Source: a virus
Taxonomy: Duplodnaviria; Heunggongvirae; Uroviricota; Caudoviricetes
Strand: one strand, 5' to 3'
IMG/VR virus record: IMGVR_UViG_3300029705_006930
Length of the DNA: 64,000 nucleotides
Below the pieces are notes generated by a model, which made no database searches, was not told where the DNA came from, and was given only the letters and a program-made list of their open reading frames with translations. Positions 2,621 to 56,749 of the stretch are shown here, one piece after another. Made by a program: the position numbers and the translations under genes. Position 1 is the first letter of the stretch, and each line of letters starts with the position of its first letter.

Positions 2621-3442
2621 CTACCCATTTAATGCGCTGTCAATACTGTCCGCCATCGCATTAATTTCGCCCTGTGTTATTGTAAGGTATGTTTTTGTTA
2701 CGCGCTGGTCACTGTGCTTGTACTTTGCCTGCAAGATGTCCATAACACTGTCGTTGTTCATTGTTTTGCGCGCTGTGTATCCGTATGTTTTGCGCAGTGT
2801 ATGTGTTGCCACGTTCTGTGTGAGGCCCGCCGCCTTTGCACCTTTCTTTAAAATGTCCCACATTTGGTGCAGGCTCATTTGCCCGCCATTGTCACTTTTC
2901 TGGGACTTGATAAGGTAGTCGCTCATTGTATAGTTGCCGTTGAGATGTTCAATGTACATTTCAATGGCTTTTTTTGCGCCCGCTGTTATTTTGTTGCGAT
3001 TGTACTTGCCGGTCTTTTGTTCGTACACATCATAGTAATCTTTTACTGTACCATCCTCATTGAGAACGTCACTGATGCGCGCTCTGAGCAGGTCACTGCC
3101 TCTGTCCCCAATGGTGCAGCCAAACACTACCATCATATAATTGCGGTACTTGTGTCGGCCCCCATGTTCAAGGAAGTAGTTTGCGAGACGCTGAAATTCG
3201 TCCGCGCTGTAAAGAGGCTCTGCACTCTGTGCCTTTTTCACGCCATTGCTTTTGTAAGGCGACGCTGTTCTTGGTGCACGCTGTTTTGGCGCTGGCTTTG
3301 CTGCGGCCATTGCCTGAGCCACTGCATTTGCTATGATGCTCTGGAGCTCGTCCTGTGTCATTTGGAGCTTTGGTGCTGCCGCCTGTGCAGGAAAGTTGAT
3401 TGTATTATTCTGTACGTTTTGTTCTTTTGGCTGAGCGTTCAT
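2621..3442 (-). CDS. int: Tyrosine site-specific recombinase / integrase
   Basis: C-terminal catalytic box HTLRKTYGYTARK ... AKYKHSDQRVTKTYL (R..HxxR..Y). RBS AAGGAGG before the ATG at 3442. Confidence 0.8.
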   Translation of the reverse strand: MNAQPKEQNVQNNTINFPAQAAAPKLQMTQDELQSIIANAVAQAMAAAKPAPKQRAPRTASPYKSNGVKKAQSAEPLYSADEFQRLANYFLEHGGRHKYRNYMMVVFGCTIGDRGSDLLRARISDVLNEDGTVKDYYDVYEQKTGKYNRNKITAGAKKAIEMYIEHLNGNYTMSDYLIKSQKSDNGGQMSLHQMWDILKKGAKAAGLTQNVATHTLRKTYGYTARKTMNNDSVMDILQAKYKHSDQRVTKTYLTITQGEINAMADSIDSALNG

Positions 3443-3514
3443 AGGTGCCTCCTTGTTTGGATTTTTGTTTCCTCTTTTATTGTCTATATTATACCATGAG
3501 AGGGGCTCTTTGAT

Positions 3515-3585
3515 AACGGGGTTTTTGAAAAAACCAAAGAACTTTTTTAAATTTTTTGTGGCGCTTTATATATGTTAATGTATAT
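3515..3585. promoter_or_regulatory. Palindromes upstream of int (GGGGTTTTTTGAAAAAACC; TATATATGTTAATGTATATA)
   Basis: Perfect inverted repeats in the int 5' region; candidate operator or arm-type/att sites. Confidence 0.3.
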
Positions 3586-3599
3586 AAGGAAAGGTTGAT

Positions 3600-4240
3600 G
3601 CGGTTGTTGCGGGGCAGTGTGATTTGGCGCAAAATTAGGCGATTTTTAGGGTGTTTGCAATTGTGTAAGGTCTGGTGTTGGAAATTTGGAAAGGTGTCTT
3701 AATGCCTGAATTTGAGGCTCTGGTGGGGTTATTCTATCACAGTGCTGACGCACTGTGGCGTCGCTGTGCTCCTTTATCTTATCAACGATGAAATGTTTGT
3801 TATTATGTTGCGCGAGAGAGGGTGTGGGGCGCGAAATTTGGGGGCCGGAGAGGTGGGAGGCGCGGTTTTGGGGCGAAATTGGGGCCCGGGTGGCCGGGGC
3901 TAAAATGGGCGTTTCCGGGGGTGTTTTGAGGGGTGTTTGGATAAGTTGCACAAAAATAGAAAAGCCACAGCCGGCTCTGTATGGGGCTAGCTGTGGTTCT
4001 TGTTGTTTATGGGCGTGATTTTGTTGTTTTTATAGTGTTTTGTGGCAAAAATGGTGAAAAAATGTGTAAAAAGGCGCGAAAATGCGTCAAAATGTGTGAT
4101 TTTTGATGATTTTTGGGTGGATTTGGTGTGGAATCAGGGCGAAATGGTGTGGAATGTTGTGTTTGGAGGGTGTTGTGGGGGTGAAAAGTGGACAAATATT
4201 GCTTTTTATGAGCCGAGAGTGAGATATAGCGACGCGTAGC
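3600..4240. other. G+T-skewed non-coding region (C/A-poor on + strand) with G-runs and short repeated motifs
   Basis: Long stretches almost devoid of C. Repeated GGCGCGAAA, GGTGTGGAAT, GAAAATG. Hairpin AGCCACAGCcggctctgtatggggctaGCTGTGGTT. Only low-complexity spurious ORFs. Confidence 0.5.
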
Positions 4241-10481: not shown

Positions 10482-11450
10482 ATGTTCACCAATATGACAG
10501 AGTTTGTGCGAGCGTACAGACAGGGCTGTCGATTTTTATATGCATCATTTGGTTTTGATTTTTCAAAGCCAGTAATTTTTTACAAGACGCGAGGGCCGAT
10601 AACAATTCGCAAACTGGTGCAAAACATTGGCATCTCACACGAGACACATAAAATCGTTATGATAATGCAACAGCCAAATGCAGGACGCACTTGGGAGCGG
10701 AGTCCAAGACTTATAGAAATAAATGCAGAAAACAATTTTGAAATCAATAATTTTAGGCGCAACTATTCTGACCGTCGTATCTCGTATCTGTTTGATAATT
10801 TTAACAGAAAAATAGATGCAAACACTTGGCGTCGTCTAGAAGAAACTATAATTTGGGTTGTAGCTCAACGCAAAGAGCATATTAAAGAAGCACAACCATA
10901 TAGAACACAGCCACAGCCAGAACCATATGTGCGTTATCAGCCGTATACATTGCGCAGTGCTACTAGTTACTCAAGTATAACATTGATACCATATGACAGA
11001 AACAAAGTGTCTGTTTATAAAGGTTTTCAGCCCGGAAAATGGCCACATAAATTGTCAGAAATACAAGACAAAAATGGCTACTACATATATGATATGCGCA
11101 CCAAGTATGCCAACAAAGTAGAAGAAATAAAAGCACAGCGTCGCAAACGCTTGGTTGACAATTATCCCTTTGACGGTATTATTGAAAAGTTTGAAGCTGA
11201 ATATATGGCAGCCAAAAATGAAGTAGCATATTGTATTTTATCGACAGATAACTATACAGTATTGTCTTTAGCTTCGACCGCATTGGGATACATATCATCG
11301 ACGAATAATGCAATCAATACGTTTAAATATCAGGTACAGAAGAAAGTATTCAAAGATATGGACGAAGCCAAACGACGTCGTGCAGATGTTGAAAATAAAA
11401 TAGTTTCGATGAAACGCAGTGTTGCAAATATGCGTTCAACAATGTACTAA
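10482..11450 (+). CDS. Hypothetical protein
   Basis: RBS AAGGGGGAG; 322 aa. Confidence 0.6.
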   Translation: MFTNMTEFVRAYRQGCRFLYASFGFDFSKPVIFYKTRGPITIRKLVQNIGISHETHKIVMIMQQPNAGRTWERSPRLIEINAENNFEINNFRRNYSDRRISYLFDNFNRKIDANTWRRLEETIIWVVAQRKEHIKEAQPYRTQPQPEPYVRYQPYTLRSATSYSSITLIPYDRNKVSVYKGFQPGKWPHKLSEIQDKNGYYIYDMRTKYANKVEEIKAQRRKRLVDNYPFDGIIEKFEAEYMAAKNEVAYCILSTDNYTVLSLASTALGYISSTNNAINTFKYQVQKKVFKDMDEAKRRRADVENKIVSMKRSVANMRSTMY

Positions 11451-11866: not shown

Positions 11867-11914
11867 AGGAGAATACATATGAAAAAGATTTTTTAATTTT
11901 TTAAAAAAAGCTAT

Positions 11915-11942
11915 TGACAAATTGATATGTAAAGTGTATTAT
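11915..11942 (+). promoter_or_regulatory. SigA-type promoter TTGACA-N16/17-TATTAT
   Basis: Directly upstream of the three leader repeats. Confidence 0.55.
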
Positions 11943-11950
11943 GTAGTTGA

Positions 11951-12070
11951 AATAACATACAGCTCATCTTTTTGAGACTGCTTTATTTTTTACAATAATA
12001 ACATACAAATCATCTTTTGTAGCTTTTAATCCTTGATTAAGGAAATATTTTTTTTAAGCAAATAACACAC
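11951..12070 (+). repeat. Three copies of a 21–23 nt motif AATAACATACAAATCATCTTTT in a 5' leader
   Basis: Copies at about 11951, 11996, 12051. Two more copies at 39954 and 40011. Confidence 0.6.
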
Positions 12071-12098
12071 AAATCATCTGTCAAAAGGAGAAATTGCA

Positions 12099-12224
12099 AT
12101 GTTACGTATTGTTAATGATAGGGGACACCTCCTCGCATATTGCGGAAACAAATTTCTTGTTTCGGCAGACAACGAGCGCGAAATGCAAAAAGAACTTGCA
12201 GAGCTCGGTTACACAATGACATAA
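12099..12224 (+). CDS. Small protein (41 aa)
   Basis: RBS AAAAGGAG; below the ORF-track cutoff. Confidence 0.35.
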   Translation: MLRIVNDRGHLLAYCGNKFLVSADNEREMQKELAELGYTMT

Positions 12225-12280
12225 AGGCAAGCCGGCCTTTATATATACAAACACTATTTTTTATAAAAGGAGATTTTAAA

Positions 12281-12727
12281 ATGGCAAAACTTAATCTTAC
12301 AGCAAATGTGCTGTCCCTTGAATCCGCACTTAAACTCGAAGATATCAAAAACGCAATGCGTTGGTGTCCAGATGCTCTCACAGTTATGGACGAAAAAGGC
12401 GAAGAAGAACTCTTCTCTGTTGCTGCAGGTACTTCAAAAGGTTATATCTCACCATACGGCATCACATTTGCTGCTGCAACAGTTCGTGGTGGTAAAGCTT
12501 GCTACACACGCGAAGTTGCACCAGGCACAGAAATGAAAGATATTGCTGAAGTTGTGCTCGCTGAATATGACAAACCAAAAGCATATCTTGAAGTTGTTGA
12601 AGCTCAGGTTGCTGAAGCTCTCGCAAAAGTTGCTGAACGTAGAACAGCTATTATGGCTGAACTTGCTGGCGAATGCGAATGTCCAGACTGCACACCAGAC
12701 TGTCCAACAGCACAGGGCGAAGAATAA
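12281..12727 (+). CDS. Hypothetical protein with strong codon bias and C-terminal Cys cluster
   Basis: RBS AAAAGGAG. Higher GC than neighbours. Followed by an A/C-rich, G-poor leader before the next gene. Confidence 0.6.
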   Translation: MAKLNLTANVLSLESALKLEDIKNAMRWCPDALTVMDEKGEEELFSVAAGTSKGYISPYGITFAAATVRGGKACYTREVAPGTEMKDIAEVVLAEYDKPKAYLEVVEAQVAEALAKVAERRTAIMAELAGECECPDCTPDCPTAQGEE

Positions 12728-12850
12728 TCTTCGCCCAACCTAAACAAACTTATCCGCAATTTAACCCAATATTTTCCATTAACATTAACAAACTTTTAAA
12801 CCGAAATCGTTAACAAACAAACTTAAACACATAAAAGGAGATTAAATATT

Positions 12851-13078
12851 ATGCTTAGAATTTATGTTGGTACAAACACAAACCGTACAGCTTACACACT
12901 TTCCCCAGAAACAACCCTCAGAGCAGCTTTTGAAACTGCAGGCGTGAACTATGAAATGGGTACCGCAACTCTTGATGGTTCCACACTTCAGCCGGGCGAC
13001 CTTGACAAGTCTTTTGCAGACTTCGGCATCACAGGTACAGCTTACCTCCTGAGCATTGTTAAAGCAAACAACGCTTAA
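12851..13078 (+). CDS. Ubiquitin-like beta-grasp protein (ThiS/MoaD-like), non-GG C-terminus
   Basis: 75 aa; MLRIYVG...TLDGSTLQPGD...AYLLSIV pattern resembles ThiS/MoaD. First gene of a Ubl/JAB/E1 operon. Confidence 0.45.
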   Translation: MLRIYVGTNTNRTAYTLSPETTLRAAFETAGVNYEMGTATLDGSTLQPGDLDKSFADFGITGTAYLLSIVKANNA

Positions 13079-13139
13079 TTGATTTTACCTATAGGGGCGG
13101 GAGCAATCCTGCCCCAATCTTTAAAGAGAGGAGCTCAGT

Positions 13140-14540
13140 ATGGCACACACATTTAAAAAATGGATGATAAAAGCCATTCCATATGACAACTTGTTTGACA
13201 TATCGGTGGACTTTGAGAATCCATTCCCGACCGATAATCGTCGCGATGCTACACTCGCGGCTGCATTTCACTGTTTGATTAAAGACAGAATTCCAGAGGG
13301 GGTTAATCGCATTGTAGTGCGTGATATCCACTCATATGACTGCAACGTGAGAGACATTTTTGACTATTATGAGGTTGAAAATGGTTTCAAAAGTTGTATT
13401 TTTTACTACGCAGATTGGGACAATGTGAATCTGCAGAGCAAAATTACATTGCCAAATGAATGGGAAGCTCAGGAAATTGCAAGCAAATTTACTGGATGTT
13501 ATGTTACAAATCACGTATCAAAACAATTGATGGTTATCTTTATTCCGAGCAACTATAACCTTGAAACTTGGCATAGACTTGGTGCATTGTTACCAAAATA
13601 TCCAGTGCTCGAGGATATGTGGGCAGCAAAACCACTTACCGAAGATGAACTCAAGATGTTGAAATCACTGTCAACAGACGGTGTAGATTTTGACACATAT
13701 ATAAAAGCGTGGATTGCGACACTCGACCTGCGCACATCCGCAATCAAAAAAATGTTCAACAAATTCATTATTGATAACATCGAGGAACAGATACGCAATG
13801 CCGAAGATAGACGTAGAAGCCTTGAAAACAATATCACAGACTATGCTGCGAGACTGGCAAGGCTGTATAGCGACCTTGACGGTGTTATTGAAATGATAAA
13901 CCGTCTTATGATAGGTGATGACACTGTTGAAGAAAAAGAAAAGAGACTTATCGAATTCTTGTTAACAAACAAAAATGTTGAGCCAATCAGACGTCGCAAT
14001 GACCGCGTTGAATTCAATGTTCACGCAGCAATTGACTGTTGGGATAACGATATGTTCTCATCTTATATCAATAATCACAACAGTTTATTGTATCGCCATA
14101 CAAGCAGATATTCATATGACCAGTTGAAACGTTTTTATGAGCAGGCATTGTTTGCCGGTCGCTTTAAAATTCAGGGCATTGCTAAATTTGAAATTGCAGC
14201 AACAGGTAATGTGAGACCAATTTCAAAAAATGGGCATTGGCCATCAGCTGAAATCGAAAACTGTATTCCAAATACACATGTGGATAAATTCACTTGTATT
14301 GGTAATCACAGACGTATGCTGGATGATGCTGCAAAAATTCGTGACTATGAACAGGCAATTTTGATTGCTATTCAGATTACACAGTCAGTTAACTGGTCGG
14401 ATGGTGCAGTTATGAATCACTTTATTCCTGAAGTGTTGCACTGTGAACGTCCAATTCTTACAGACAGAACAGGCAATACATACACTGTTGCACAGGTAAT
14501 AAGCATACTTGATGCCGAAATAAAGGAGGTTGAAAAATAA
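13140..14540 (+). CDS. Large hypothetical protein, possible E2-like component
   Basis: Sits in the E2 position of a Ubl-E2-DUB-E1 order. C-terminal PNTHVDKFTCIGN is weakly HPN-Cys-like. E2 assignment is weak. Confidence 0.5.
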   Translation: MAHTFKKWMIKAIPYDNLFDISVDFENPFPTDNRRDATLAAAFHCLIKDRIPEGVNRIVVRDIHSYDCNVRDIFDYYEVENGFKSCIFYYADWDNVNLQSKITLPNEWEAQEIASKFTGCYVTNHVSKQLMVIFIPSNYNLETWHRLGALLPKYPVLEDMWAAKPLTEDELKMLKSLSTDGVDFDTYIKAWIATLDLRTSAIKKMFNKFIIDNIEEQIRNAEDRRRSLENNITDYAARLARLYSDLDGVIEMINRLMIGDDTVEEKEKRLIEFLLTNKNVEPIRRRNDRVEFNVHAAIDCWDNDMFSSYINNHNSLLYRHTSRYSYDQLKRFYEQALFAGRFKIQGIAKFEIAATGNVRPISKNGHWPSAEIENCIPNTHVDKFTCIGNHRRMLDDAAKIRDYEQAILIAIQITQSVNWSDGAVMNHFIPEVLHCERPILTDRTGNTYTVAQVISILDAEIKEVEK

Positions 14541-15475
14541 TGAAACCAATAAGATTGACCGATGATGTAAAAGCGGCTATTCTTGATAAATTTGCAAAAC
14601 AGCTGAGCACGGTTGTACGTGCTTCAACTATTACATTCACACATACGCCAACAGTGGTAAGCACACCGTTAGGCAAAGATGAAAAAGTGCTGATTACTTA
14701 TACAGCAGAAGCATTCCGCAAGCAGCAGATGCTTATTCAGAGTTTTGACAGTGAAGTGGCTTGGCACGGTGTTGTTGAACGTGAAGATGCAAAGCATTTT
14801 ATTATTACAGATATCGTAGTATATCCCCAGACTGTTACCGGCTCAACTGTTGAGATGGACGAAGACAAATATGCTCTTTGGACAATTCAGTTCGGTCGTG
14901 AACACGGCGAAGAAACATTCCAGAAACTGCGTATGCAGGGACATAGCCACGTGAATATGGAATGTTTTGCAAGTGGTACAGACTCTAAACACCAGGATGA
15001 CATCTTGGCAACAACTGACCCAAATGGGTTCTATATTTTCATTATTGCCAATAAAAAAGGCAAATTCTGGAGCACTATTTTCGACCTCGAAGCAAATGTT
15101 CAGTATGAAAATGCTGACATCGAAATCGAGTATGAGGAAGATGAGTACGATGAATTTGTAAGTGCAGCAGAAAGTGTGGTTGTAAAAAAGACTTATACAC
15201 CACCTTACAACTATGGCAATGGCTATCACAACAACGGAGCAGGGTATTCATACGGGGCAAGCGCTTATTCTCAGAAGCCACCTCAGACTCCGCCTATGCC
15301 AGTGCTTCCGACAAATACACAGCCAAAAACAAGCACAAACGAAACAAACACAAAGGCAAACACAAACACAAAAAAGGACGATAAATCCATTGAAGAAGAT
15401 ATCACCAATCTTATTCAGATGTCATTGAACGATATGGAATGGGATGAAGTTGGTGGATGGACAAGCAAAATGTAA
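14540..15475 (+). CDS. JAB/JAMM metallopeptidase (deubiquitinase-like)
   Basis: Upstream Glu (VVERED) then GHSHVNMECFASGTD, i.e. HxHx7Sx2D. Low-complexity Y/G/N/T-rich C-terminal tail. Confidence 0.75.
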   Translation: MKPIRLTDDVKAAILDKFAKQLSTVVRASTITFTHTPTVVSTPLGKDEKVLITYTAEAFRKQQMLIQSFDSEVAWHGVVEREDAKHFIITDIVVYPQTVTGSTVEMDEDKYALWTIQFGREHGEETFQKLRMQGHSHVNMECFASGTDSKHQDDILATTDPNGFYIFIIANKKGKFWSTIFDLEANVQYENADIEIEYEEDEYDEFVSAAESVVVKKTYTPPYNYGNGYHNNGAGYSYGASAYSQKPPQTPPMPVLPTNTQPKTSTNETNTKANTNTKKDDKSIEEDITNLIQMSLNDMEWDEVGGWTSKM

Positions 15476-15484
15476 GGAGAAATT

Positions 15485-16174
15485 ATGGACTTAAGTAAAT
15501 CACTTGACTGGTTTAATCCAGACAGCGTTTCGGAACGCATACATATTATCGGATGCGGTAGTGTAGGTAGTACAGTTGTGGAACTGTTGGCAAGATTCGG
15601 TCTTACAAAGTTCACTCTGTATGATTTTGACCTTGTTGAACCTCACAATATCGCAAACCAGATGTTCAGAAAAACGGACATTGGTAAAACAAAAGTTGAA
15701 GCATTGCAGCAGATTGTATGTGAAATCAATCCAGAGGCGGGCAAAGATATTAAACTTGAACCAGAAGGTTGGCACGGACAGCAGTTGTCTGGCTATGTAG
15801 TTCTTGCTGTTGATAGCATTGAATTGCGTAAAAAGATTTGTGAAGGTTTGCAGATGAATATCTTTGTTAAAGCTGTGTTTGATTTCCGTACAAGTTTGCT
15901 CAACGCACAGCATTATGCAGCCAATTGGCAGGACAAAAAACATCGTGATGACCTCATTGCAACAATGCAGTTCACCGATGAAGAAGCTGCGGCTGAAAAC
16001 CCAGTATCAGCGTGTGGTGTAACACTTGGTGTCGCACCAACAGTAAGACTGATATGCACACTAGGCGTAAGCAATATGATGAACTTTTTCAGAGAAAAGA
16101 AATTGAAAAAAGTTGTATTGGCAGACGCATTTAATTTTGATGCTGACCCTATGGTATTACCTATGGGTCAATAA
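15485..16174 (+). CDS. E1-like ThiF/MoeB-family adenylyltransferase
   Basis: IIGCGSVGSTVVELLARFGL...LYDFDLVEPHNIANQMF, a Rossmann GxGxxG plus D.D.VE.sN..RQ signature. Confidence 0.75.
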   Translation: MDLSKSLDWFNPDSVSERIHIIGCGSVGSTVVELLARFGLTKFTLYDFDLVEPHNIANQMFRKTDIGKTKVEALQQIVCEINPEAGKDIKLEPEGWHGQQLSGYVVLAVDSIELRKKICEGLQMNIFVKAVFDFRTSLLNAQHYAANWQDKKHRDDLIATMQFTDEEAAAENPVSACGVTLGVAPTVRLICTLGVSNMMNFFREKKLKKVVLADAFNFDADPMVLPMGQ

Positions 16175-16199
16175 TACACAATAAGAGAAATGTTTATGG

Positions 16200-16500
16200 T
16201 GAATATTGCACATTGTATGGCAAGCTTTTGCTGTTAGCAGAAGTAAAGAAATGGTAGAGAACATAGAGGCAGGCGCTTAAGGAGCACGCTGAGGTGATTC
16301 CTAAGTACTGCAGCTTCTTGCATCCGACGAGCTCTGAAAAGGTAGGTTTAACAGGAGGATTGGATTACTTACAAGTGAAATTAACCAGTTCAAACCGTAA
16401 AGCTCATCTGAAATTAACGATAAATCCCAGATTTGCATCTCTTTTATCCGGGAATGAAGGGCTTAAAACTATAGCTAGACCATAAACAAGATAGGGAGGA
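16200..16500 (+). ncRNA. Candidate structured non-coding RNA upstream of the RT (contains repeat copy 1)
   Basis: 320 nt gap with repeat TTGCTGTTAGCAGaagtaaaGAAATGGTAGAGAA. An alternative GTG-start 63 aa ORF (16294..16485) with RBS AAGGAG cannot be excluded. Confidence 0.25.
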
Positions 16501-16504
16501 CATT

Positions 16505-17860
16505 ATGGTTTATATCACATATCCAGCACCTAACAAATTTCATCAGATTACATTTGAAGAAATGATGTCGGGCAATGTTAATACAGATAAATTAAGAATT
16601 TTAGGCGGACATAATACGCTTACTTTGCATCTTAACGATGTACCTGCAAACTTAAAAGGTCAGACTTCTGTACGCAAAATGATTGCAGATTTGCAGTATT
16701 TTGTAGGTGTATATTATGACACACTGATGCCACAGATAAAAGAATTTGAGAAGCTTTCAGATGCTCAGCGTCGCAGCGTCAAACAGCGTGACAAGATTGA
16801 AAATTATTTTGAACAGATGGGCGCAACTGCAAATGATGAAGACTTGCAGAAAATCACTGAACAGGTAGATGCGCTGCAGTGTGAAGTTGCAGAACAGCAG
16901 TATAAATATGCTTACTATACATTCGATTTGCGCAAAAGTTCAGCGCCGGAACACATTCCATTGTGGCGACTGCCAAAAGAATACAGACGTACAATCAATG
17001 CTCCGAACATACATCTTAAAAATGCGCTATATGAACTTAAAGAACTGTTTGAAAATATGATGATACGTACATATCATACTGCATCATTTGCGTATGTTAA
17101 ACATCGTGGAACTTTGGATGCTGTAAAACGTCATCAGAGCTGGGAAAGCAAATGGTTTGCAAAGTTTGACTTTTCAGATTTCTTTGGTAGCACAACAATT
17201 GACTTTGTTATGCAACAGTTCTCTCAAATATATCCGTTTAATATGATTTGTGCATATAAAGATGGTAAAGAAGCTCTTTATAAAGCATTGCAGTTGTGTT
17301 TTTTGGACGGTGGACTTCCACAGGGCACACCTATTAGTCCTCTCATCACAAACATAATGATGATACCATTTGACCACGCAATGTCAAAAGCTCTTAAAGA
17401 ATTTAAATATCCAAACAAACACGGTAGTGAACGTTTTGTGTATACAAGATATGCTGATGACCTGCTTATCAGTTGCCGTGTGGATTTTAAAGTGGAAATT
17501 ATTCAGGCATTTATTCTGGAAACTTTAAAATCAATGAATGCGCCTTTTAGCCTTAACGTTAAGAAAACTCGTTACGGTTCTAGTGCAGGTAGCAACTGGA
17601 ATCTTGGGGTGATGCTTAACAAAGACAATAAAATTACAATCGGTGCAGAAAACAAGCGCAGACTTAAAGCTTCTTTGAATTCATTTATCCTTGATATGAA
17701 GAATGAAAAACCTTGGGATATTTCTATGGTGTATAGACTCAGAGGTCAGATTTCTTATTATCGTAATGTGGAAAGGGAAGCAACAAATAACATCATTGCA
17801 GCGATGAACACAAAATATGGTGTTGATGCAGAAGCAATGATGAAATCTATTATAAGTTAA
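16505..17860 (+). CDS. Reverse transcriptase, retron/Abi-like
   Basis: RT motifs FAYVKHRGTLDAV, KFDFSDFFGS, LPQGTPISPLITN, YTRYADDLLIS (YADD). Motif-7 region NLGVMLNKDNKITIGAENKRR aligns to the retron VTGLVIS...IGRE block. Confidence 0.8.
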   Translation: MVYITYPAPNKFHQITFEEMMSGNVNTDKLRILGGHNTLTLHLNDVPANLKGQTSVRKMIADLQYFVGVYYDTLMPQIKEFEKLSDAQRRSVKQRDKIENYFEQMGATANDEDLQKITEQVDALQCEVAEQQYKYAYYTFDLRKSSAPEHIPLWRLPKEYRRTINAPNIHLKNALYELKELFENMMIRTYHTASFAYVKHRGTLDAVKRHQSWESKWFAKFDFSDFFGSTTIDFVMQQFSQIYPFNMICAYKDGKEALYKALQLCFLDGGLPQGTPISPLITNIMMIPFDHAMSKALKEFKYPNKHGSERFVYTRYADDLLISCRVDFKVEIIQAFILETLKSMNAPFSLNVKKTRYGSSAGSNWNLGVMLNKDNKITIGAENKRRLKASLNSFILDMKNEKPWDISMVYRLRGQISYYRNVEREATNNIIAAMNTKYGVDAEAMMKSIIS

Positions 17861-18797
17861 TTTAATTTTTATATATTGAATATCACAGTCATTGTGAAGT
17901 GTTGATGTTATCGGCACTAACGAAATGGTAAGAAAGTATGGCAGGAAGGCCCGCAGGTTCATGATGAAGACGCGTGCGAGCTTACAGCTCCAGCATAAAA
18001 ATTAGAAATGCTGGTACAATGAAAAGGAAGAAAATCATGAACGAAAGCCATACTTTCCAACATCCACAAAACCACGAATTTAAAACGCTTCATTACTCCG
18101 CGACCCTCCGCCAGGAGGGCCCGGGCGCGGTAAAGCGTCAAATAAATAATTGAGAATATATAAAAAAACTTTATTGAATATCTTTAAATTTGTACATAAA
18201 TTTAAGAACTGTTGCTGTTAGCAGCAGTGTCAAACGAACAGGATAAATAAAGAAATACAAATTTCTTTATTTAAATAACTTCTTAGCGTCGTAAGGCGCG
18301 ATGCTCCGACATCGCTCATGACGACGCCAAAGTTATTGAGAATAAAGTTAAAAAAATAATAAGAAAAATAAACAGTGTATATTTGCATAGCAAAGCTATT
18401 GATGTAATCAGTAGTACAGAAATGGTAGGAAAGATTACACGGGACGGTGTCGCCGGTGAGGAGCCACCTCCTTTGCAAACCCCTGCAATATTTCTAAAAC
18501 CTAATTAAAACTATGTCCGAATGGTCAAACATAACAGGAGGACTGAGAAACATCACCTGAAGGATACCAACTGAACCCCCAGTTCAGATGACACGACAGC
18601 TGGAGAAATCTAGACCCATGGGATGGTGATTCAACATTAAATTACAATTCAGACTGTTTATTGCTTTATAGTTTTTGCCAAGCTACGAAAACTCCAAATA
18701 ATGAGTAGTGTGTGACATAAAAGCCAAGCCTCGTCAACTCCCTTTCGGGGCTTGGTAAAGACTATAAAACAAACAATTTAAGTAAAGGAGAATATAT
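17861..18797 (+). ncRNA. About 940 nt structured non-coding region downstream of the RT with three further repeat copies
   Basis: Repeats at 17902–17939, 18212–18224, 18399–18436. GC-rich nested hairpins read at 18097–18140, 18287–18327, 18565–18590 and 18723–18760. Confidence 0.3.
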
Positions 18798-19187
18798 ATG
18801 ACAAAAGCAGAAAAAGCAGCTGGCAGGCTGTTAAGAAGAATGAATAAAGAATACTTGGGTGAGGTAGAAGCATTGATAAAAATGTGTCGACAGCCTAAAG
18901 TTGACCTTTCTGAAATCAGTATTCAGTCCTACAAAGTAACAGTTTTGGCAGAGCTCAAAGACGAATTTTTTGCAATCAAAATGACAGAAGATGAAATGGA
19001 GTATATTTATGACCTCTATGCTTGTCTTGATGCTCCTTTGAATTATTTGTGGGAATGTTGGCGTGATGATGAAGGCTATAACATTTCTGACTCCATTGGT
19101 GATTTAGTTTCTGATATTATAAGCCAGGATATCGAATGTATTTCAGAAGATAACTTAATCGAGGTGAATATGGATGAGACTGAATGA
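18798..19187 (+). CDS. Hypothetical protein
   Basis: RBS AAAGGAG. Confidence 0.55.
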   Translation: MTKAEKAAGRLLRRMNKEYLGEVEALIKMCRQPKVDLSEISIQSYKVTVLAELKDEFFAIKMTEDEMEYIYDLYACLDAPLNYLWECWRDDEGYNISDSIGDLVSDIISQDIECISEDNLIEVNMDETE

Positions 19188-19416
19188 TAAACTCACAATT
19201 TATTTAGACAATGGCAATAAATTGGTTGCTGAATTATATAATCATGCAGGTATAGAAAAAGAAATCTCCGTACATATTGAAAACGCTTCAGGTGTATGTA
19301 TTCAAGATATTTGCACCGTAAAAGCAGTAGAAGAAATTGAATGTTTAGTATGGGGAGATGAAAATTCTGAAGATTATACAGACGAGTTCTATATACCGCT
19401 TTATAAGGAGGTCTAG
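19174..19416 (+). CDS. Hypothetical protein
   Basis: Overlapping start; RBS GAGG. Confidence 0.45.
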   Translation: MRLNDKLTIYLDNGNKLVAELYNHAGIEKEISVHIENASGVCIQDICTVKAVEEIECLVWGDENSEDYTDEFYIPLYKEV

Positions 19417-19418
19417 CT

Positions 19419-19832
19419 ATGATTTCAGATGAATATAGGCGTAGAACAACAGCCGAATTGCTAAATATGGCATCATCAGTGTGGAACAATATGGACACAT
19501 TTTTAAAAACAGTAGATGATTTTCAATATGATTGGATGAAAAATACGCAAATAAATGTATTTGCGCTTGAATTTATGGAACCAATCATGGTTTATGACGG
19601 TTTTTGTATTATGCGTGATAGAACCTATCGCGATTATTATTACATAAGCGAAGATAAAATCGTTAAAGTTATTCCTGAACATATTTTGGCATCAGCTCCA
19701 GATACCGAATACTATGATGAAAATAATAAATTGATTGATACTGAACAGTTGTTGCAGCTACACGACAGTGATGTTTGTGGTGAGACAGATGATTGCCAGT
19801 ATTATGTATGGTTCAGTGAGGTATCACAATGA
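19419..19832 (+). CDS. Hypothetical protein
   Basis: RBS AAGGAGG. Confidence 0.5.
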   Translation: MISDEYRRRTTAELLNMASSVWNNMDTFLKTVDDFQYDWMKNTQINVFALEFMEPIMVYDGFCIMRDRTYRDYYYISEDKIVKVIPEHILASAPDTEYYDENNKLIDTEQLLQLHDSDVCGETDDCQYYVWFSEVSQ

Positions 19833-43397: not shown

Positions 43398-43916
43398 ATG
43401 GCAAGAATAGTTACTTGTGCTGTGACAAAAGAAAAAGGAACCAGTGATGTTTTTTATAAGGCGGACAATGGAAAATGGTATAAGAGCGAATCTGTATTTC
43501 GTCAGTTTCAGAAAGATAAACACACCAGAGAAACTATTCAACGTGTTTTACTTACATATCTTGGATATCAGAAAGGAGAGCCATTTCCGGCTCTCCTCAA
43601 CAAAAAGATAAAAGAATATTCTTTTTATTCACCAGAAGTATTGCTTGAAACAATTACAAAGTGTGAAAAAGACATTACATGGGCATTCAATAATAAAGAA
43701 TTTTCTTCTACACAAGGCAAAATATTTTATATGTTTGCAATCATTTCAAATCATATCAGTGATGTGAATAGACAAAACAATAAAGTGAATGAGCTAAGAA
43801 ATAAACAAACTCAAAAACACATCGATACCATCCAAGAAATGGACATTTCAACCATCGGCACATCAAAAAAAGGTAAAGATATTACGGATTTCTTGGAGGA
43901 TGATTTATGGAATTAG
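43398..43916 (+). CDS. Hypothetical protein
   Basis: ORF track. Confidence 0.5.
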   Translation: MARIVTCAVTKEKGTSDVFYKADNGKWYKSESVFRQFQKDKHTRETIQRVLLTYLGYQKGEPFPALLNKKIKEYSFYSPEVLLETITKCEKDITWAFNNKEFSSTQGKIFYMFAIISNHISDVNRQNNKVNELRNKQTQKHIDTIQEMDISTIGTSKKGKDITDFLEDDLWN

Positions 43917-45379
43917 ATGTATTGTTGCAAAAAATTAATGAACATCGTGGTGAAATTGAAGCCCCATTTGTTTTTTGTTTATGGAAGAATCCGGATTTAT
44001 ATGATGATTATAAATTTGTAAACGAAAAAGAAGACGATATCATTCGTAATCCTGATGCACAGTTTTATTTCAATTTAGGTAGAGCACTGTATAAAGCTGG
44101 ATATCGCAATTTTGACCATATTGCTGTCTACACTTTTCTTCAAGACAAAGAAACAATAAAAAAGCAGTTTGACAGTTATGGTGGTTTCAAAGAAGTTGAA
44201 GAATTTAAAGGCTTAGTCAGCATAGAGAATGTTAATGCATATTTTGATAAAGTAGCAAGACTTAATATTCTTGATGAAATGTGCAAGATGATGTTTTCAT
44301 CATTTGATAAACTTGAAAAGTTTGATAGGATGACAAGTCAGCAGATTTACGATTATTTTGAGTACAAATTAAATGACATTAGTATCACCGCAACGCATGA
44401 TGTTGAAGAAGAAAGTTTGGTCATTGATGATGCTTTTATTGAAGAGTGCAATAGCGGTGATACTGTTGGAATCAGTTATGGCAAGCAGTGCCCATTATTG
44501 AATTATTTAACATTAGGAGTTCCACTTGGTGAAATGTATATGATTGCTGGACATAGTGGTGCAGGCAAATCTAGTTTTGCATTTGAAAATATGGCTATTC
44601 CAATGGCCCAAGACGGCATAAAGGTAGCTATTGTTTCTAATGAAATGCGAAGCAAAGATTATAAAGTAATGTTACTTGCCCATATATTAACAAAAGACCT
44701 AAATTATTGGGGCTTGACACGCAAACAAATAAAAATAGGCCACTTTACAGACGAACAAAAGATAATGATTGCCAAGGCACAAAAAATTAGTAAAGAAAAA
44801 TATAGCAATCTCAAATTTGTGAAACTGTTTGATAATGATGTTTCTAAAGTTATGAAATACATCAAGATGAACGCCAAAAAAGGTTATCAGGTTTTTCTAT
44901 GGGACACAATGAAGAGTGATGATAGTCTTGATGAAAAAATGTTTTTGCAATTATTAGTCAATAGCAGAAAGGTTTTTCAGTTGGCATCAAAAGAAAACAT
45001 TGCAATTATTACAACTTATCAGTTGGCACTATATACCGTTAATCAAAGATATTTGGATGCGGGATGTCTTGCAAATGGTAAACAGATAAAAGAAGTGTTT
45101 TCTGAAATGGTTTACATGCGTACTTTATGGGATGACGAATACACAGGCAAAAAATTTGATTGTCGACCATACAATTTACAGCGTAATGCAGAGGGCAAAT
45201 ATACTGGTGTTAAGCAATATGTTGAATTAAACCCAGATAATAAATATATAGTTGTCTTTTTGGATAAGACTCGCAATGATGAAGACAAGCAGCAGGTTTT
45301 ATACGAAGTAAACGGTCGTTTTAATAGCTGGAAAGAAATTGGCCGTTGCAACATAGTTAATGAACATGGAAGGTATTAA
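43907..45379 (+). CDS. DnaB-like replicative helicase
   Basis: Walker A GHSGAGKSSFA; RecA-fold C-terminal domain with long N-terminal domain. Confidence 0.7.
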   Translation: MELDVLLQKINEHRGEIEAPFVFCLWKNPDLYDDYKFVNEKEDDIIRNPDAQFYFNLGRALYKAGYRNFDHIAVYTFLQDKETIKKQFDSYGGFKEVEEFKGLVSIENVNAYFDKVARLNILDEMCKMMFSSFDKLEKFDRMTSQQIYDYFEYKLNDISITATHDVEEESLVIDDAFIEECNSGDTVGISYGKQCPLLNYLTLGVPLGEMYMIAGHSGAGKSSFAFENMAIPMAQDGIKVAIVSNEMRSKDYKVMLLAHILTKDLNYWGLTRKQIKIGHFTDEQKIMIAKAQKISKEKYSNLKFVKLFDNDVSKVMKYIKMNAKKGYQVFLWDTMKSDDSLDEKMFLQLLVNSRKVFQLASKENIAIITTYQLALYTVNQRYLDAGCLANGKQIKEVFSEMVYMRTLWDDEYTGKKFDCRPYNLQRNAEGKYTGVKQYVELNPDNKYIVVFLDKTRNDEDKQQVLYEVNGRFNSWKEIGRCNIVNEHGRY

Positions 45380-49277: not shown

Positions 49278-51809
49278 ATGGACTATCCCTCTGACAATGA
49301 ATGCATAAAGCGTTTTTTAGACCAAGGAATTTTTACTGAGACAGAAATTCAACGTGCAATGGATAACACAGATATCTGCTTAACATTTGAGAATTTTTAT
49401 TTTAGTAAAGATATTAAACTACCAACTTTATATCCAGACAAGACTCAAGAGGAAAAGAACAAGATATATTCAAGACTGATTACAAAAAAGTTTAAAGAAT
49501 ATATGAAATATGTTCCTGCTGAAGACTATGACAGATATTATCAAGGTGTTAAAGAAGAAGTTCAGGTATATAAAGATACTGGTATGGTTGACTATCCGCT
49601 AATCAACTATGAAGTTATTAAGCGCGGGATTGAATTGGGCGGGGTAATTACAGATAGTGGACGTGGTTCCGCTGTTGGCTTCTTCACAAACACATTGTGT
49701 GGATTCTCAAAAGTTGACCGTTTTACATCTGCAATTCATCTTTATCCAGAGCGCTTTATGTCAACAAGCCGAATATTAGAGTCCGGCTCCCTACCAGATA
49801 TTGACTTTAACGTAGCTAATACTGAGCCTTTTGAACGAGCACAAAAAGAAATACTTGGAGAAGAACATTCATATCCAATGATTGCATTTGGCACTTTGAA
49901 AAAGAAATCTGCTTTTAAGCTTTATGCAAGAGCAAAAGATGTGCCAGCTGCCATTGCAAATGAAATCACAAAACAGATTGAAAAATATGAAAATGATTTA
50001 AAACATGCCGATGATGATGACAGGCGCGATATAAATATCTATGACTATGTAGATGAACAGTATCATGACCATTTGAGACAGAGTGAATCATATTGGGGTA
50101 TCATTTCTGACCGCAAAAAAGCTCCATCGGCACATCTCTTATATCAAGGCAATATTCGTAAAGAAATTGGGCTCATTAAATGTAAGAGTGAAAGTACCAA
50201 GAAGGAATGCATCACTTGTGTTATTGATGGTGCAGTCGCAGAAGAATATAAATTTTTGAAAAATGACCTGCTCACTGTAAATGTGGTGGATATTATTGAC
50301 CGTGTTTTTAAACGTATTGGCATTGAGCATTTTAATGTAAATACATTGTTGGGACTTATTAAAAATGATAAACCGACTTGGGATATTTATGCTAAAGGTT
50401 TGACTATAGGTGTTAACCAATGTGAAAAAGCCTCAACAACAAAAAAAGCAATGCGATATAAACCACGAAACCCATCTGAGCTCTCGGCATTTATAGCAGG
50501 TATTCGTCCAGGCTTTAAATCAATGTATCCGATTTTTGAAAGTAGACAGCCGTTCTCATATGGAGTTGCTACACTGGATAATCTGCTGATTACCGAAGAA
50601 CTTCCGATTCCCTTTATGATTTTCCAGGAACAGACAATGAAAGTCCTTAACTATGCTGGATTTCCAATGGACGAATGCTATGGTCTTATTAAAGCTATCA
50701 GTAAAAAGAAACCAGAAAAGGTAAAAGCAATCAAAGATGATTTTATTAAAAATTTCTGCAAACAAATTCAAGAAGATAATGGACTTGATTTTGAAATTGC
50801 ACAAAATAACAGTGAAAAAGTATGGACAGTAGTAAATGATAACTCAGGTTATGCATTTAACAGTTCTCATGCATACTGTATGGCGTTGGATAGCTTATAT
50901 TGTGCTTATCTCAAATCTCACTATCCTTATGAATTTTATGAGGTACTTCTCACATTTTATTCCAACAAAGGCAACAAAGATAAAGTTGCTGAACTGAAAA
51001 GAGAAATGCTCCAAGGTTTTGGTATCAGAGAAGGCAAGTTTAAGTTTGGCAATGATAATCGCAGCTTTAAAGCCGACAAAGAAAACGGTGTTATATATTC
51101 ATCACTATTATCATTAAAAAATATGAACCAGAAATGTTCTGAGGACTTATATGCTTTATCACAAAAAAAACAATATACAAACTTTTTTACACTGCTCAAA
51201 GATATTAAACAACTTAAGAGTCTGAAATCTGACCAGCTTAATATTTTGATTAATATTGGATATTTTGATGATTTTGGTACAGTCCCACAGATTCAGACAT
51301 TTGTAAAAGCATATGACGACCTTTATGGACGAGCTCAATTTTCCAAAGATAATCTGGATGCTAATTATGCAGCACTTATTGCTGCTGACAGTACGCAGAC
51401 TGAAAAACAATATCGCAACTTTGATTATGAAAATGCATTGCATAAATTGTGGATGCAAATTCCGCCAATTAAATTAGGTTTGCATCAGAAAATTAAAAAC
51501 GAACTTGAATATTTTGGATACATACAAACAATCATACCAAAGCTCTCAGATGAATATGTAGTCGTAACTGATAAGATTGACAAATATTCGAAACTGACGG
51601 TCACGGTTTATGTATTACAGACTGGAGCAATTCATACTTATCGAATGCGAAGCAGAGTTGCAGAGCAATGCGGAACAATTAATGTGGGCGATATTATTAA
51701 ACTGATGAAGTTTAGCGAAGAAAAGAAATGGACAAAAAATGTCAACGGAGATTGGGTACACACAGATGAAACCGAAACACTCATTAAAAAATATGCACTG
51801 ACAAGATGA
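49278..51809 (+). CDS. DNA polymerase III alpha (DnaE-type) catalytic core
   Basis: Palm motif GRGSAVGFF; 843 aa, which with the 231 aa PHP ORF gives about 1074 aa. Confidence 0.7.
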   Translation: MDYPSDNECIKRFLDQGIFTETEIQRAMDNTDICLTFENFYFSKDIKLPTLYPDKTQEEKNKIYSRLITKKFKEYMKYVPAEDYDRYYQGVKEEVQVYKDTGMVDYPLINYEVIKRGIELGGVITDSGRGSAVGFFTNTLCGFSKVDRFTSAIHLYPERFMSTSRILESGSLPDIDFNVANTEPFERAQKEILGEEHSYPMIAFGTLKKKSAFKLYARAKDVPAAIANEITKQIEKYENDLKHADDDDRRDINIYDYVDEQYHDHLRQSESYWGIISDRKKAPSAHLLYQGNIRKEIGLIKCKSESTKKECITCVIDGAVAEEYKFLKNDLLTVNVVDIIDRVFKRIGIEHFNVNTLLGLIKNDKPTWDIYAKGLTIGVNQCEKASTTKKAMRYKPRNPSELSAFIAGIRPGFKSMYPIFESRQPFSYGVATLDNLLITEELPIPFMIFQEQTMKVLNYAGFPMDECYGLIKAISKKKPEKVKAIKDDFIKNFCKQIQEDNGLDFEIAQNNSEKVWTVVNDNSGYAFNSSHAYCMALDSLYCAYLKSHYPYEFYEVLLTFYSNKGNKDKVAELKREMLQGFGIREGKFKFGNDNRSFKADKENGVIYSSLLSLKNMNQKCSEDLYALSQKKQYTNFFTLLKDIKQLKSLKSDQLNILINIGYFDDFGTVPQIQTFVKAYDDLYGRAQFSKDNLDANYAALIAADSTQTEKQYRNFDYENALHKLWMQIPPIKLGLHQKIKNELEYFGYIQTIIPKLSDEYVVVTDKIDKYSKLTVTVYVLQTGAIHTYRMRSRVAEQCGTINVGDIIKLMKFSEEKKWTKNVNGDWVHTDETETLIKKYALTR

Positions 51810-55426: not shown

Positions 55427-56749
55427 ATGAGACAAATATTAAATATGAGAGAAACATTAACGCGAGTAAGTTTTTTATTTAAGACTATTGCGAGTACACC
55501 AAGGACAACTGAAAAGAAACGATTGTTGCGTTATATCAACAGCTCAGAACCAGAGAATGTATGTGAAATGTTTCTGTATACTTTACGATTTTTATTGGAT
55601 AACAATGTAACAACAGGTATCGATAAAAAGAAACTCAAAGCTCAAATTAATATGCCTGATATTAATTTTCCAATGAAATGGTCACATATGTTGGAATATA
55701 TCAAAGAAAACAATACAGGAAGGCATGAAGATATTCGCAGAGCACAGCTCTTTATCGAAGATAATCCCGAGAATGCGGAATTTATTGCTGATATTATAAC
55801 AAAATCATATAGGTTAGGACTGACAGCCAAAACAGTAAATGAAGTTTATGAAGATTTTATTCCTGTTTGGTCAGTACAGCAGGCATATCCTTTGGAAAAA
55901 TATCCGCTTAAGGACGGAGAATGGTTTTCTTTATCACAAAAGCTTAATGGGTTCCATGCCTCATATTACAAGGGTAAATTAATAAGCCGACAAGGAAAAG
56001 AAATCAAAGGTTGTAAGCACGTTATTAACGCAATAAACAACTTTAAACTTCAAGATTTCTTTATTGATGGCGAGCTTATCCGGCGTAATGATATTGAACC
56101 TCATCTCTCAGACGAAGAAAATTTTCGACAGACTGTTTCAATTGCGAATTCTGATTCTGACGACAAAACAGACCTGTGTTTTATTTATTATGATATCATT
56201 CCAGCTGATGATTTTGACAAAGGCAAATGTGAAATAACATATCGCCAACGTCTTAATGACATGCATAAATTAAACAGTATAATTCTGCAGACTCCATTTT
56301 ATAAAACGTTTCATATGGTGAAATGGTTTTATCACGGCAATGACCAAAAGAAAATTCAGTTTTGGCTTGATTATGCAAATGAAAATGATATGGAGGGTCT
56401 TATGTTAAATAAGGATACTGTATATCAATGCAAACGTAATTCAGGCATTTTAAAGGTAAAAAGTTGGAAACATTGTGACCTTAGAGTAACGGGCGTTGAA
56501 GAAGGCGATGGCAAATACAAAGGAACCCTTGGAAAACTGATTGTGGACTATAAAGGAAATACTTTGGGATTAAGTGGAATGAGCGATGAGGAACGTTATA
56601 TATTTTGGAATAATCCACAGGACATAGTTGGGAAGATTGTGCTCGTTAAATATAAACAGGAAACAAAAGACAAAACAGGTAAACGTAGTTTGCAGTTCGC
56701 AACCTACCAAGGTGTTAGAACTGATAAAGATGAAGTCAGCTACAATTAA
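55427..56749 (+). CDS. ATP-dependent DNA ligase
   Basis: KLNGFHA (I), FIDGELI (III), EGLMLNK (IV), ILKVKSW (V). Confidence 0.65.
   Translation: MRQILNMRETLTRVSFLFKTIASTPRTTEKKRLLRYINSSEPENVCEMFLYTLRFLLDNNVTTGIDKKKLKAQINMPDINFPMKWSHMLEYIKENNTGRHEDIRRAQLFIEDNPENAEFIADIITKSYRLGLTAKTVNEVYEDFIPVWSVQQAYPLEKYPLKDGEWFSLSQKLNGFHASYYKGKLISRQGKEIKGCKHVINAINNFKLQDFFIDGELIRRNDIEPHLSDEENFRQTVSIANSDSDDKTDLCFIYYDIIPADDFDKGKCEITYRQRLNDMHKLNSIILQTPFYKTFHMVKWFYHGNDQKKIQFWLDYANENDMEGLMLNKDTVYQCKRNSGILKVKSWKHCDLRVTGVEEGDGKYKGTLGKLIVDYKGNTLGLSGMSDEERYIFWNNPQDIVGKIVLVKYKQETKDKTGKRSLQFATYQGVRTDKDEVSYN

Follow-up and report, generated by a model that had tools for sequence, protein, structure and literature searches.

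Retrons combine a reverse transcriptase (RT) with an adjoining non-coding RNA (ncRNA) that is bounded by a1/a2 inverted repeats and has a conserved 5′ and a variable 3′ part, and this pair stands in fixed synteny with accessory protein genes. The known retron partners are nucleases, NTPases, proteases, TIR domains and similar effectors. In BilABCD systems (types I and II), a ubiquitin-like protein (Ubl), an E2, a deubiquitinase (DUB) of the JAB kind and an E1 are encoded in the order Ubl-E2-DUB-E1 (PMC10557695); according to that source, citing Hor et al., Bil systems tag the central tail fiber of phages. In type II cyclic oligonucleotide-based antiphage signaling systems (CBASS), an E1-E2 protein (Cap2) and a JAB peptidase (Cap3) accompany a nucleotide-polymerizing cGAS/DncV-like nucleotidyltransferase (CD-NTase), whose own C-terminus is conjugated. 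The subject here is a cassette in a 64,000-nucleotide stretch of DNA from a virus of the Caudoviricetes (IMG/VR record IMGVR_UViG_3300029705_006930; the whole stretch is called the window), in which an RT that is placed in the retron clade and four ncRNA units adjoin genes for a Ubl, an E2-like protein, a JAB peptidase and an E1. Probably, this cassette is a retron-like element carried by phages that has a full Ubl conjugation pathway as its protein partner and is used in phage conflict, with immunity as the favored role.

The cassette spans positions 12281-18662 on the + strand and consists of six genes in a tight array together with the four ncRNA units. A preliminary description of this DNA had drawn an accessory island from 12851 to 18797, holding genes for Ubl, a 466-residue protein, JAB, E1 and RT and embedded among tiny genes. 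The gene calls and coordinates of all five hold, and the neighbors are mostly small + strand open reading frames (ORFs). The upstream limit does not stand, as a sixth conserved cassette gene, p149, begins at 12281. Past the RT, 940 nucleotides (nt) are without a credible ORF, the next gene starting at 18798, and this stretch holds three ncRNA units, with the result that RNA flanks the RT on both sides. The spacer of 330 nt between the E1 stop and the RT start, described earlier as repeat-containing, carries one of four copies of a 43-nt element.

Across relatives, the RT and the Ubl genes were found together almost without exception. A scan of viral contigs seeded with the RT returned 61 loci at ~40% identity, in 60 of which E1 lies directly upstream of the RT, the one locus that departs from this being a fragment of 771 nt, and 59 of the 61 carry JAB. 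None of these loci matched any gene flanking the cassette in the window. Scanning from the most divergent RTs gave 80 loci, and all 74 with upstream room carry E1-JAB-p466, most of them also Ubl. Scans seeded with JAB, which are independent of the RT, covered viral contigs and GTDB genomes and yielded 145 loci, with the RT in 132 and all six genes in 119; most of the loci without an RT are cut by the contig end before the RT position. The co-occurrence of the two modules in related phages, named in the preliminary description as a check, is thus borne out, and the linkage is much stronger than had been proposed. Independent modules were seen only in one lineage (L169/L178), in which the RT is lost and an ncRNA 5′ module and a BRO-like gene come, in this order, after E1, and in two distant relatives (L202 and L205), in which an E1-JAB-E2-like module stands without an RT.

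An RNase H1 gene (Cauli_VI hybrid-binding domain plus RNase_H) is found in the cassettes of different lineages at two positions, and in the window at neither. It lies between Ubl and the E2-like gene in L083, L086, L125, L127 and L238-L242, and after the RT and downstream unit 2 in L165 (12022-12648). Retron msDNA (multicopy single-stranded DNA) depends on RNase H1, according to PMC8989520, and the presence of such genes in some cassettes matches this dependence. The recruitment of RNase H1 inside the Ubl half ties the RT and Ubl halves to each other, as does the position of the upstream ncRNA, which begins 10-60 nt past the E1 stop. Besides the Ubl pathway, the RT half is without any other candidate effector gene. 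From the reciprocal co-occurrence, the RNase H1 insertion and this want of another effector for the retron part, it is concluded that the RT-ncRNA and Ubl genes are one system, not two neighbors.

The family is large and diverse. Clustering at 60% identity gave at least 31 RT, 61 p466, 51 JAB and 19 E1 clusters, and the cassette proteins of the window are 24-59% identical to those of relatives. IMG/VR holds at least 512 relatives of the RT and at least 413 of JAB, and the protein collection holds 841 Ubl clusters; the database entries for the family are all annotated as hypothetical proteins. More than 30 diverged lineages keep the same order and spacing, and their flanks differ completely. 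The contigs that carry the cassette fall into two size classes, ~45-52 kb and 90-150 kb, and genome matches come from gut and rumen Clostridia metagenome-assembled genomes and a small number of Bacteroidales bins. An abundant lineage, SPbeta-like and equipped with a YonO-type polymerase gene, is represented by contigs of up to 499 kb and an isolate genome; these 200-500 kb contigs and the isolate genome suggest prophages. The genome of Ruminococcus sp. AF12-5 carries a relative, with the Ubl P0086. For the flanking genes of the window, which were sought in order to test patchiness in the phage's own lineage, IMG/VR returned no relatives. Of the two distant RT-less relatives, L202 (7243-9776, Allochromatium humboldtianum) encodes E1, JAB and a 351-residue protein with H-P-H...C-x-G and adjoins a D5-like primase, and L205 (4467-11054, a Waltera contig) holds a p149-like gene, two large unknown genes, JAB, E1 and a 428-residue unknown gene.

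The RT (16505-17860, + strand, 451 residues, catalytic YADD) matches Pfam RVT_1 at 3.7e-18. Its best match in PADLOC is RT_II-A (2e-41), the top 25 of 58 matches there all being retron RT models, and its best match in NCBIfam is retron_St85_RT (1e-46). Among PDB profiles, retron RTs are matched at 2e-29 and below, ahead of the RTs of group II introns and of DRT (defense-associated RT) systems, and of the solved structures those of the Ec83 and Ec78 retron RTs come closest. The nearest relatives in three libraries are thus retron RTs of the St85/Ec78/Ec83 type (types I-A and II-A), and the Y(A/S)DD motif is conserved in 189 of 194 relatives. Retron RTs have the specific motifs NAxxH and VTG; in alignment to Ec83 and Ec78, NAKIH stands opposite AVKRH in the cassette RT, and VTG opposite NLG. 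The RT scores 159.5 bits against an NCBIfam retron cut-off of 235, below the curated threshold, and has an N-terminal extension and a lineage-specific insert at about residues 70-135. Because its best matches are retron RTs, its score lies below the cut-off and its motifs are altered, the RT is placed, as judged by sequence, in the retron clade but outside the curated families.

The four 43-nt elements start at 16222, in the E1-RT spacer, and at 17896, 18206 and 18393, past the RT, and each lies ~30 nt inside a unit that is closed by a perfect long-range helix. One such unit lies upstream of the RT and three downstream (17866-18662), all on the + strand. Unit 1 (16191-16488, 298 nt; 48.8 bits against a covariance model of the family) is retron msr/msd-like. 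It is closed by a perfect 10-bp a1/a2 helix (TGTTTATGGT / ACCATAAACA) that pairs 16191-16200 with 16479-16488, and it carries a conserved hairpin, HP2, and the GAAATGGTAG motif. Unit 2 (17866-18166, 301 nt; 36.2 bits) has a perfect 12-bp helix (17866-17877 with 18155-18166) and a fold z-score of -4.7. The short unit 3 (18167-18349, 183 nt; 45.2 bits) has a 9-bp helix (18167-18175 with 18341-18349), a fold z-score of -6.8 and no GAAATGG motif, and unit 4 (18367-18662, 296 nt; 48.5 bits) has a 10-bp helix (18367-18376 with 18653-18662). The a1/a2 helix sequences differ among the units, and in all four a G follows a1 and an AG precedes a2. Their common fold comprises the closing helix, a small variable hairpin, a hairpin of 9 bp with a 3-nt loop (HP2), whose pairing is kept by compensatory changes, a short and conserved single-stranded motif, and a long, variable body.

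The covariance model, built from 20 units of eight lineages, found 83 matches in 65 sources in a first round, all on the cassette strand, and 39 more in further lineages in a second, all on the + strand (122 in total). The layout is constant: one unit starts 10-60 nt past the E1 stop, and one to three tandem units start 12-50 nt past the RT stop, giving 2-4 units per RT across relatives and four in the window. In HP2, 118 cells changed on both sides compared to 36 in shuffles, a value equaled in 0 of 500 shuffles, and slid controls were far lower. The best a1/a2 helix has a mean of 9.6 versus 7.4 after shuffling, with 33 of 81 units exceeding the shuffled 95th percentile, and unit length clusters near 300 nt. 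A G follows a1 in 39 of 46 units and precedes a2 in 37, within an AG in 28. Retron RTs prime msDNA on the 2′-OH of a G at the end of the a1/a2 stem, and the geometry predicted for the units is that of the retron msDNA priming layout.

The element therefore shares with retrons an RT-adjoining ncRNA with a1/a2 inverted repeats, a conserved G, a conserved 5′ part and a variable 3′ part, as well as fixed synteny with accessory protein genes (E1-JAB-E2-Ubl, in 60/61 and 74/74 loci). It differs in having 2-4 units of ~300 nt on both sides of the RT as opposed to one upstream, in the AVKRH/NLG motifs, sub-cut-off score and N-terminal extension of its RT, in its carriage by gut Clostridia phages, and in its partner, Ubl-E2-JAB-E1 plus p149, an effector type unprecedented for retrons. 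When the variable parts of the units were compared with the rest of the 64-kb window for possible targets, only short, chance-level matches were found, and RNAalifold applied to the hypervariable center found pairs only in the invariant ends. No unit is found by either covariance model in the loci of group B (L034-L060), where the RT abuts E1. One of these, L035 (~11020-11420), has an RT-E1 gap of 14 nt and three tRNA-like genes after the RT, between which lies a 155-nt element flanked by a perfect 13-nt inverted repeat; this element breaks the G/AG rule and is not claimed as an ncRNA unit.

The Ubl (12851-13078, + strand, 75 residues) has a ubiquitin fold and ends in ..KANNA. Its AlphaFold2 (AF2) model, from a 30-sequence alignment, has beta-grasp topology with a predicted local distance difference test (pLDDT) score of 92.4, and Foldseek matches it to ubiquitin, NEDD8, SUMO and BilA (8tyx_A) with template-modeling (TM) scores of 0.6-0.68 and, for ubiquitin, NEDD8 and BilA, a probability of 1.00. 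By sequence profile, only weak matches to SAMP2 and MoaD-like proteins are seen, and PADLOC gives no match. In nearly all relatives the C-terminus reads ..K-A/Q-D-N/S/G/C-Ala, and a minority end in GG; about a third of relatives carry 1-4 residues beyond the conserved Ala, or a fused p149. BilA has a universally conserved reactive Gly, often followed by residues that the DUB removes (PMC10557695). Because of this trimming of BilA by its JAB peptidase, the conserved Ala is taken, by analogy, to be the reactive end of the Ubl, which JAB would mature.

The p149 gene (12281-12727, + strand) lies upstream of Ubl in most loci, and its product, with a beta-rich N-terminal part and a long C-terminal helix, is an orphan without a match in Pfam, PDB or NCBIfam. 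Several lineages, with at least nine loci between them, encode Ubl and p149 in a single ORF whose junction is always ..DNA|A.., the terminal Ala of Ubl being joined to Ala2 of p149 (..DNA|AK..); fusions are seen in L286, L294, L295, L298, L307, L314, L317, L319, L198 and L180. In L169 and L178 the two genes are unfused and stand in the order Ubl then p149. The fusion could be either a precursor that is cut by JAB or a genetic mimic of a conjugate between Ubl and the N-terminus of p149, and under both readings it indicates that p149 works with Ubl. Together, the C-terminal extensions and the fusions imply that a peptidase is needed.

The third protein, p466 (13140-14540, + strand, 466 residues), consists of an N-terminal domain and a coiled coil, followed by a C-terminal domain that is probably UBC/RWD-like and carries P-x-P-H-x5-C-x-G. 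The C-terminal 200 residues were modeled by AF2 with moderate confidence and have a probable E2-like fold; the alignment was shallow, most of the sequences retrieved for it being of one subgroup, and the model does not reach the N-terminal 260 residues. H380 and C386 are conserved in 202 of 203 relatives. Sequence searches found no family for p466: Pfam applied to 12 diverse members gave no consistent family, a single-sequence scan of viral contigs found nothing, a single-sequence protein search found one 98% identical copy only, and PADLOC gave just a marginal LmuB match (E 0.04). The earlier label of E2 is probable and not proven, and p466, with its His...Cys pair, is regarded as a probable large E2-like enzyme.

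The ATG of the JAB/JAMM metallopeptidase gene (14540-15475, + strand, 311 residues) overlaps the p466 stop. No Pfam or PADLOC model matches this protein, and a sequence profile gives a weak Rpn11 match (E 0.006); its JAMM residues E72, H135-x-H137, S145 and D148 are kept in 204 of 206 relatives. In the window, JAB has a long low-complexity C-terminal tail where other lineages have a separate acidic protein of 158 residues. The gene for the latter lies between JAB and E1 in many lineages (L238 13655-14131; homologues at 51 loci), and its product has no family match. The minimal E1 (15485-16174, + strand, 229 residues) is a bare ThiF/MoeB-type adenylation domain, of ThiF/MoeB size. It matches Pfam ThiF at 1.4e-20, ThiF and 6A-MBL cap2_3 in NCBIfam, and UBA5, Uba1, MccB and Cap2 among solved structures, and its best defense-library matches are the CBASS Cap2-type E1-E2 models of PADLOC (3e-17). 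The GxGxxG motif and C177, in the motif VSACG, are conserved in 200-202 of 203 relatives (Cys177 in 200). Across ~200 relatives, E1, the E2-like protein and JAB thus hardly vary at their predicted catalytic residues.

Compared to BilABCD, the cassette has the same four activities, as predicted, in the same order, a single beta-grasp Ubl that matches BilA structurally and would often need C-terminal processing by JAB, and, in its probable E2, a conserved His near the presumed catalytic Cys. It differs in the reactive residue of the Ubl, Ala in most relatives rather than Gly, in an E1 with one adenylation domain, whereas BilD has tandem inactive and active adenylation domains and a CYS domain, in the extra N-terminal domain and coiled coil of the 466-residue E2-like protein, and in the addition of p149, RT and ncRNAs within a phage-encoded cassette. 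No PADLOC or Pfam model detects the cassette Ubl, JAB or, the marginal LmuB match aside, the E2-like protein. With CBASS, the cassette shares an E1 of Cap2 type and an E1/E2/JAB set that is tied to a nucleotide-polymerizing enzyme, which suggests that conjugation may regulate that enzyme, here the RT. Unlike CBASS, it has neither a CD-NTase nor a cyclic-nucleotide effector, its E1 and E2 are separate proteins, and it encodes a dedicated Ubl, the conjugated part in CBASS being the C-terminus of the CD-NTase itself.

Within single phage species, the ncRNA varies far more than the genes. In a first species (the L002 group, 26-32 genomes compared), cassette genes differ by 1-4% in nucleotide sequence, and the ncRNA units match this conservation over their first 80 and last 40 nt. 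The center (~220 nt) is 20-36% diverged from the reference and has many indels, with 31 distinct sequences in 32 genomes. Pairwise, it shows 21% mismatches plus 14% gaps compared to 9.2% at 4-fold sites of E1, JAB and RT, a rate 2.3x faster. This variation is not adenine-specific, conserved A's being common, and the closest genome pairs are only 3.5% diverged in the center; the lack of adenine bias and this low figure argue that neither mutagenesis of the kind made by diversity-generating retroelements (DGRs) nor continuous hypermutation is at work. In a second species (the L074 group, 34 genomes), a 120-nt hot spot in the ncRNA differs by 14-24% versus 2-4% in genes. The variation of the center fits diversifying selection on an msDNA-coding body.

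The term accessory, used in the preliminary description, stands in part. In its favor, a natural 1.7-kb deletion has removed part of p149, Ubl and the N-terminus of p466 from a genome that is otherwise 91-97% identical (L208, on the same contig as L027, compared to L207 12108-13818). Against it, the cassette is almost always present within one phage species, being found in every L002-group genome with enough sequence. In L215, homology ends after 10977, 1 kb before the cassette, and the contig ends thereafter.

The anatomy of the cassette is a matter of observation, and the flow of events proposed for it is inferred from retrons and Bil systems. The RT would copy the variable 3′ part of each ncRNA unit, giving one msDNA per unit, and the template would be trimmed by an RNase H supplied by the host or, in some lineages, by the cassette. 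JAB would remove the short extensions of Ubl, or p149 where it is fused, and thereby expose the C-terminal Ala. E1 would then adenylate Ubl, load it onto Cys177 and hand it to Cys386 of p466, which would attach it to a target. The RT-msDNA complexes may form, as they do in other retrons, a sensing and gating scaffold for the effector module, here the Ubl pathway, and several fast-evolving msDNAs might act as different sensors; p149 could be an adaptor, or the first acceptor via its N-terminus. A more speculative version, which we regard as unlikely, makes the fast-evolving msDNAs programmable specificity modules, each RT-msDNA complex recruiting the E2-like enzyme to its own target or sensing its own trigger, or has Ubl joined to msDNA or to the p149 N-terminus on an msDNA scaffold.

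As for its role, phage or prophage immunity in which proteins of competing phages would be tagged is favored, by analogy, because of the nearest relatives of both halves, the hints of prophages and the STAND NTPase genes near the cassette in 27 loci. The fast divergence of the ncRNA center likewise speaks for a role in conflict. Several points weigh against such a retron-like immunity system. The score and motifs of the RT depart from the curated retron families as described above, and the msDNA, the Ubl conjugates and the phenotype are predictions from sequence only. The cassette has no toxic effector, unlike most retrons, and Ubl genes with an ncRNA 5′ module (L169/L178) or a distant E1-JAB-E2 module (L202 and L205) occur without an RT. 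Very weak constraint could give a picture similar to that of the ncRNA center, an alternative with which the low divergence of the closest genome pairs agrees. The cassette is near-fixed in the L002 species, and its place in the early region, on the early-gene strand, fits counter-defense or host takeover equally well. Use against the host early in infection is accordingly a serious rival, possible if on the doubtful side: the same single machine would tag host defense or housekeeping proteins with Ubl, and the msDNAs would be decoys or specificity factors. A cassette that lies among early genes behind a promoter-like site and is found in essentially every adequately sequenced genome of the species, unlike patchy accessory defense genes, suits this role, as do the acidic 158-residue protein at 51 loci and an RNA center evolving as fast as an arms race against variable host factors would lead one to expect. 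Anti-phage systems, however, are nearest to both halves (retrons, and E1/E2/JAB proteins of the Cap2 and Bil types), the isolate genome and the 200-500 kb contigs suggest prophages able to protect lysogens, STAND NTPase genes recur nearby, and a natural deletion variant exists.

That the cassette instead serves the phage's own replication or particle maturation, for instance through msDNA as a primer or regulator or through a Ubl step that matures p149, is improbable. Near-fixation within the species, strong purifying selection on catalytic residues and the resemblance of the Ubl-p149 fusions to ubiquitin-fusion precursors that are merely processed would all be expected of such a function; a hypervariable RNA center would not, and the cassette lies outside the structural and replication modules, has completely different flanks in different lineages, occurs in unrelated phage size classes and persists in a natural genome with the 1.7-kb deletion of p149, Ubl and the p466 N-terminus. 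The notion of two independent systems, a Bil-like Ubl operon and a retron, that merely share an insertion hot spot draws on the RT-less distant E1-JAB-E2 relatives (L202, L205), on the one lineage without an RT (L169/L178) and on the interaction of the RT with the Ubl pathway being a prediction from genes. It is close to refuted by the co-occurrence counts and is given very little credence, as the scans never found this RT clade away from the Ubl genes (60/61, the exception being the 771-nt fragment, and 74/74), more than 30 diverged lineages share one order and spacing but not their flanks, the retron part has no other effector gene, and RNase H is inserted within the Ubl half. Least probable of all is a DGR or other mobile retroelement, with the units as template and variable repeats and the hypervariability made by the RT. 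As in phage DGRs, an RT is flanked by repeated non-coding units whose centers are hypervariable between near-identical genomes. Yet the RT belongs to another clade, matching retron RTs best and not those of DGRs or group II introns, bases other than adenine vary too, no protein gene contains the variable parts and no target protein gene a variable repeat, no Rfam intron or other RNA family is matched, and the 3.5% divergence of the closest pairs shows no ongoing hypermutation. With a retron-clade RT, non-adenine variation and non-coding units, the DGR and group II intron readings are rejected as largely refuted.

The surroundings of the cassette were also surveyed. STAND-type NTPase genes (nSTAND3/AAA, faint NACHT) occur within 10 kb of the cassette in 27 loci from several unrelated lineages (for example L238 19322-20228, and L003, L039, L077, L156, L165 and L167), a recurrence that suggests a neighborhood rich in defense-like genes. 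Arrays of paralogous genes of ~90 residues adjoin the cassette in L002 (11751-14110), L169 (11813-13488) and L035 (4170-4978), and their products share a C-terminal ..F-D/E-E/D-L-L/I... Upstream of the cassette in the window lies a candidate sigma-70-like promoter (TTGACA-17-TATTAT, 11914..11942, + strand) that matches 11 of 12 consensus positions. Directly after ncRNA unit 4, an imperfect inverted repeat with 30-nt arms (18661-18772) encloses a promoter-like site (18675-18702) shortly before the gene at 18798, and the repeat may be where the cassette transcript ends or the next one begins. The promoter and terminator scans were rejected as evidence, since site counts were no higher than in shuffled sequence.

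The window as a whole is phage-like. It encodes a tyrosine recombinase (2621-3442, - strand), a DnaB-like helicase (43907-45379), a PolIII-alpha-like polymerase (49278-51809) and two ATP-dependent DNA-ligase-like proteins (110-1411, - strand, and 55427-56749, + strand). Positions 3001-4000, which overlap the tyrosine recombinase gene and the stretch just downstream, have a GC content of 0.478 versus ~0.35 elsewhere and a strong negative AT skew, and could be an attachment region, a regulatory region or foreign DNA. Megablast against INPHARED phages gave no match to the cassette region. A tRNA scan of the whole window found none, and Rfam returned nothing at gathering thresholds across the window and, for 12000-19500 with E up to 5, three hits only, all at chance level.

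The cassette is rated as a retron-like system that is carried by phages, has several ncRNA units for each RT and is joined to an unprecedented effector module, and equally as a Bil-like system with a built-in RT and RNA. In the full-text literature searched, which leaves out most subscription journals, no paper was found to connect Ubl, E1 or JAB genes with an RT or retron, and a prior description is possible. The retron classification paper mentions neither ThiF, ubiquitin nor JAB (PMC7736814), the Bil papers do not mention a reverse transcriptase, and a conflict-systems paper from the Aravind laboratory treats Ubl systems and RTs separately. The nearest prior report is a gut-virome preprint of 2026, which mentions a UBA5-like fold in one family of phage proteins (10.64898/2026.03.05.709809).

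Ubl conjugation as a retron partner would join two defense themes that have been studied apart. How Ubl systems choose when and what to tag becomes directly testable where a sensor-like RNA/DNA part is genetically joined to the pathway, and the recurrent Ubl-p149 fusion offers a biochemical lead, either to conjugation at an N-terminus or to the processing of a precursor. Also relevant to retron-based genome-editing tools are the presence of several ncRNA units per RT and the make-up of the units, a conserved 5′ handle joined to a body free to vary. The family is a large one, found in hundreds of gut phages and seated in abundant phages of gut Clostridia, and msDNA-guided or msDNA-linked tagging, if true, would be the first nucleic-acid-guided or nucleic-acid-linked Ubl conjugation in prokaryotic viruses.

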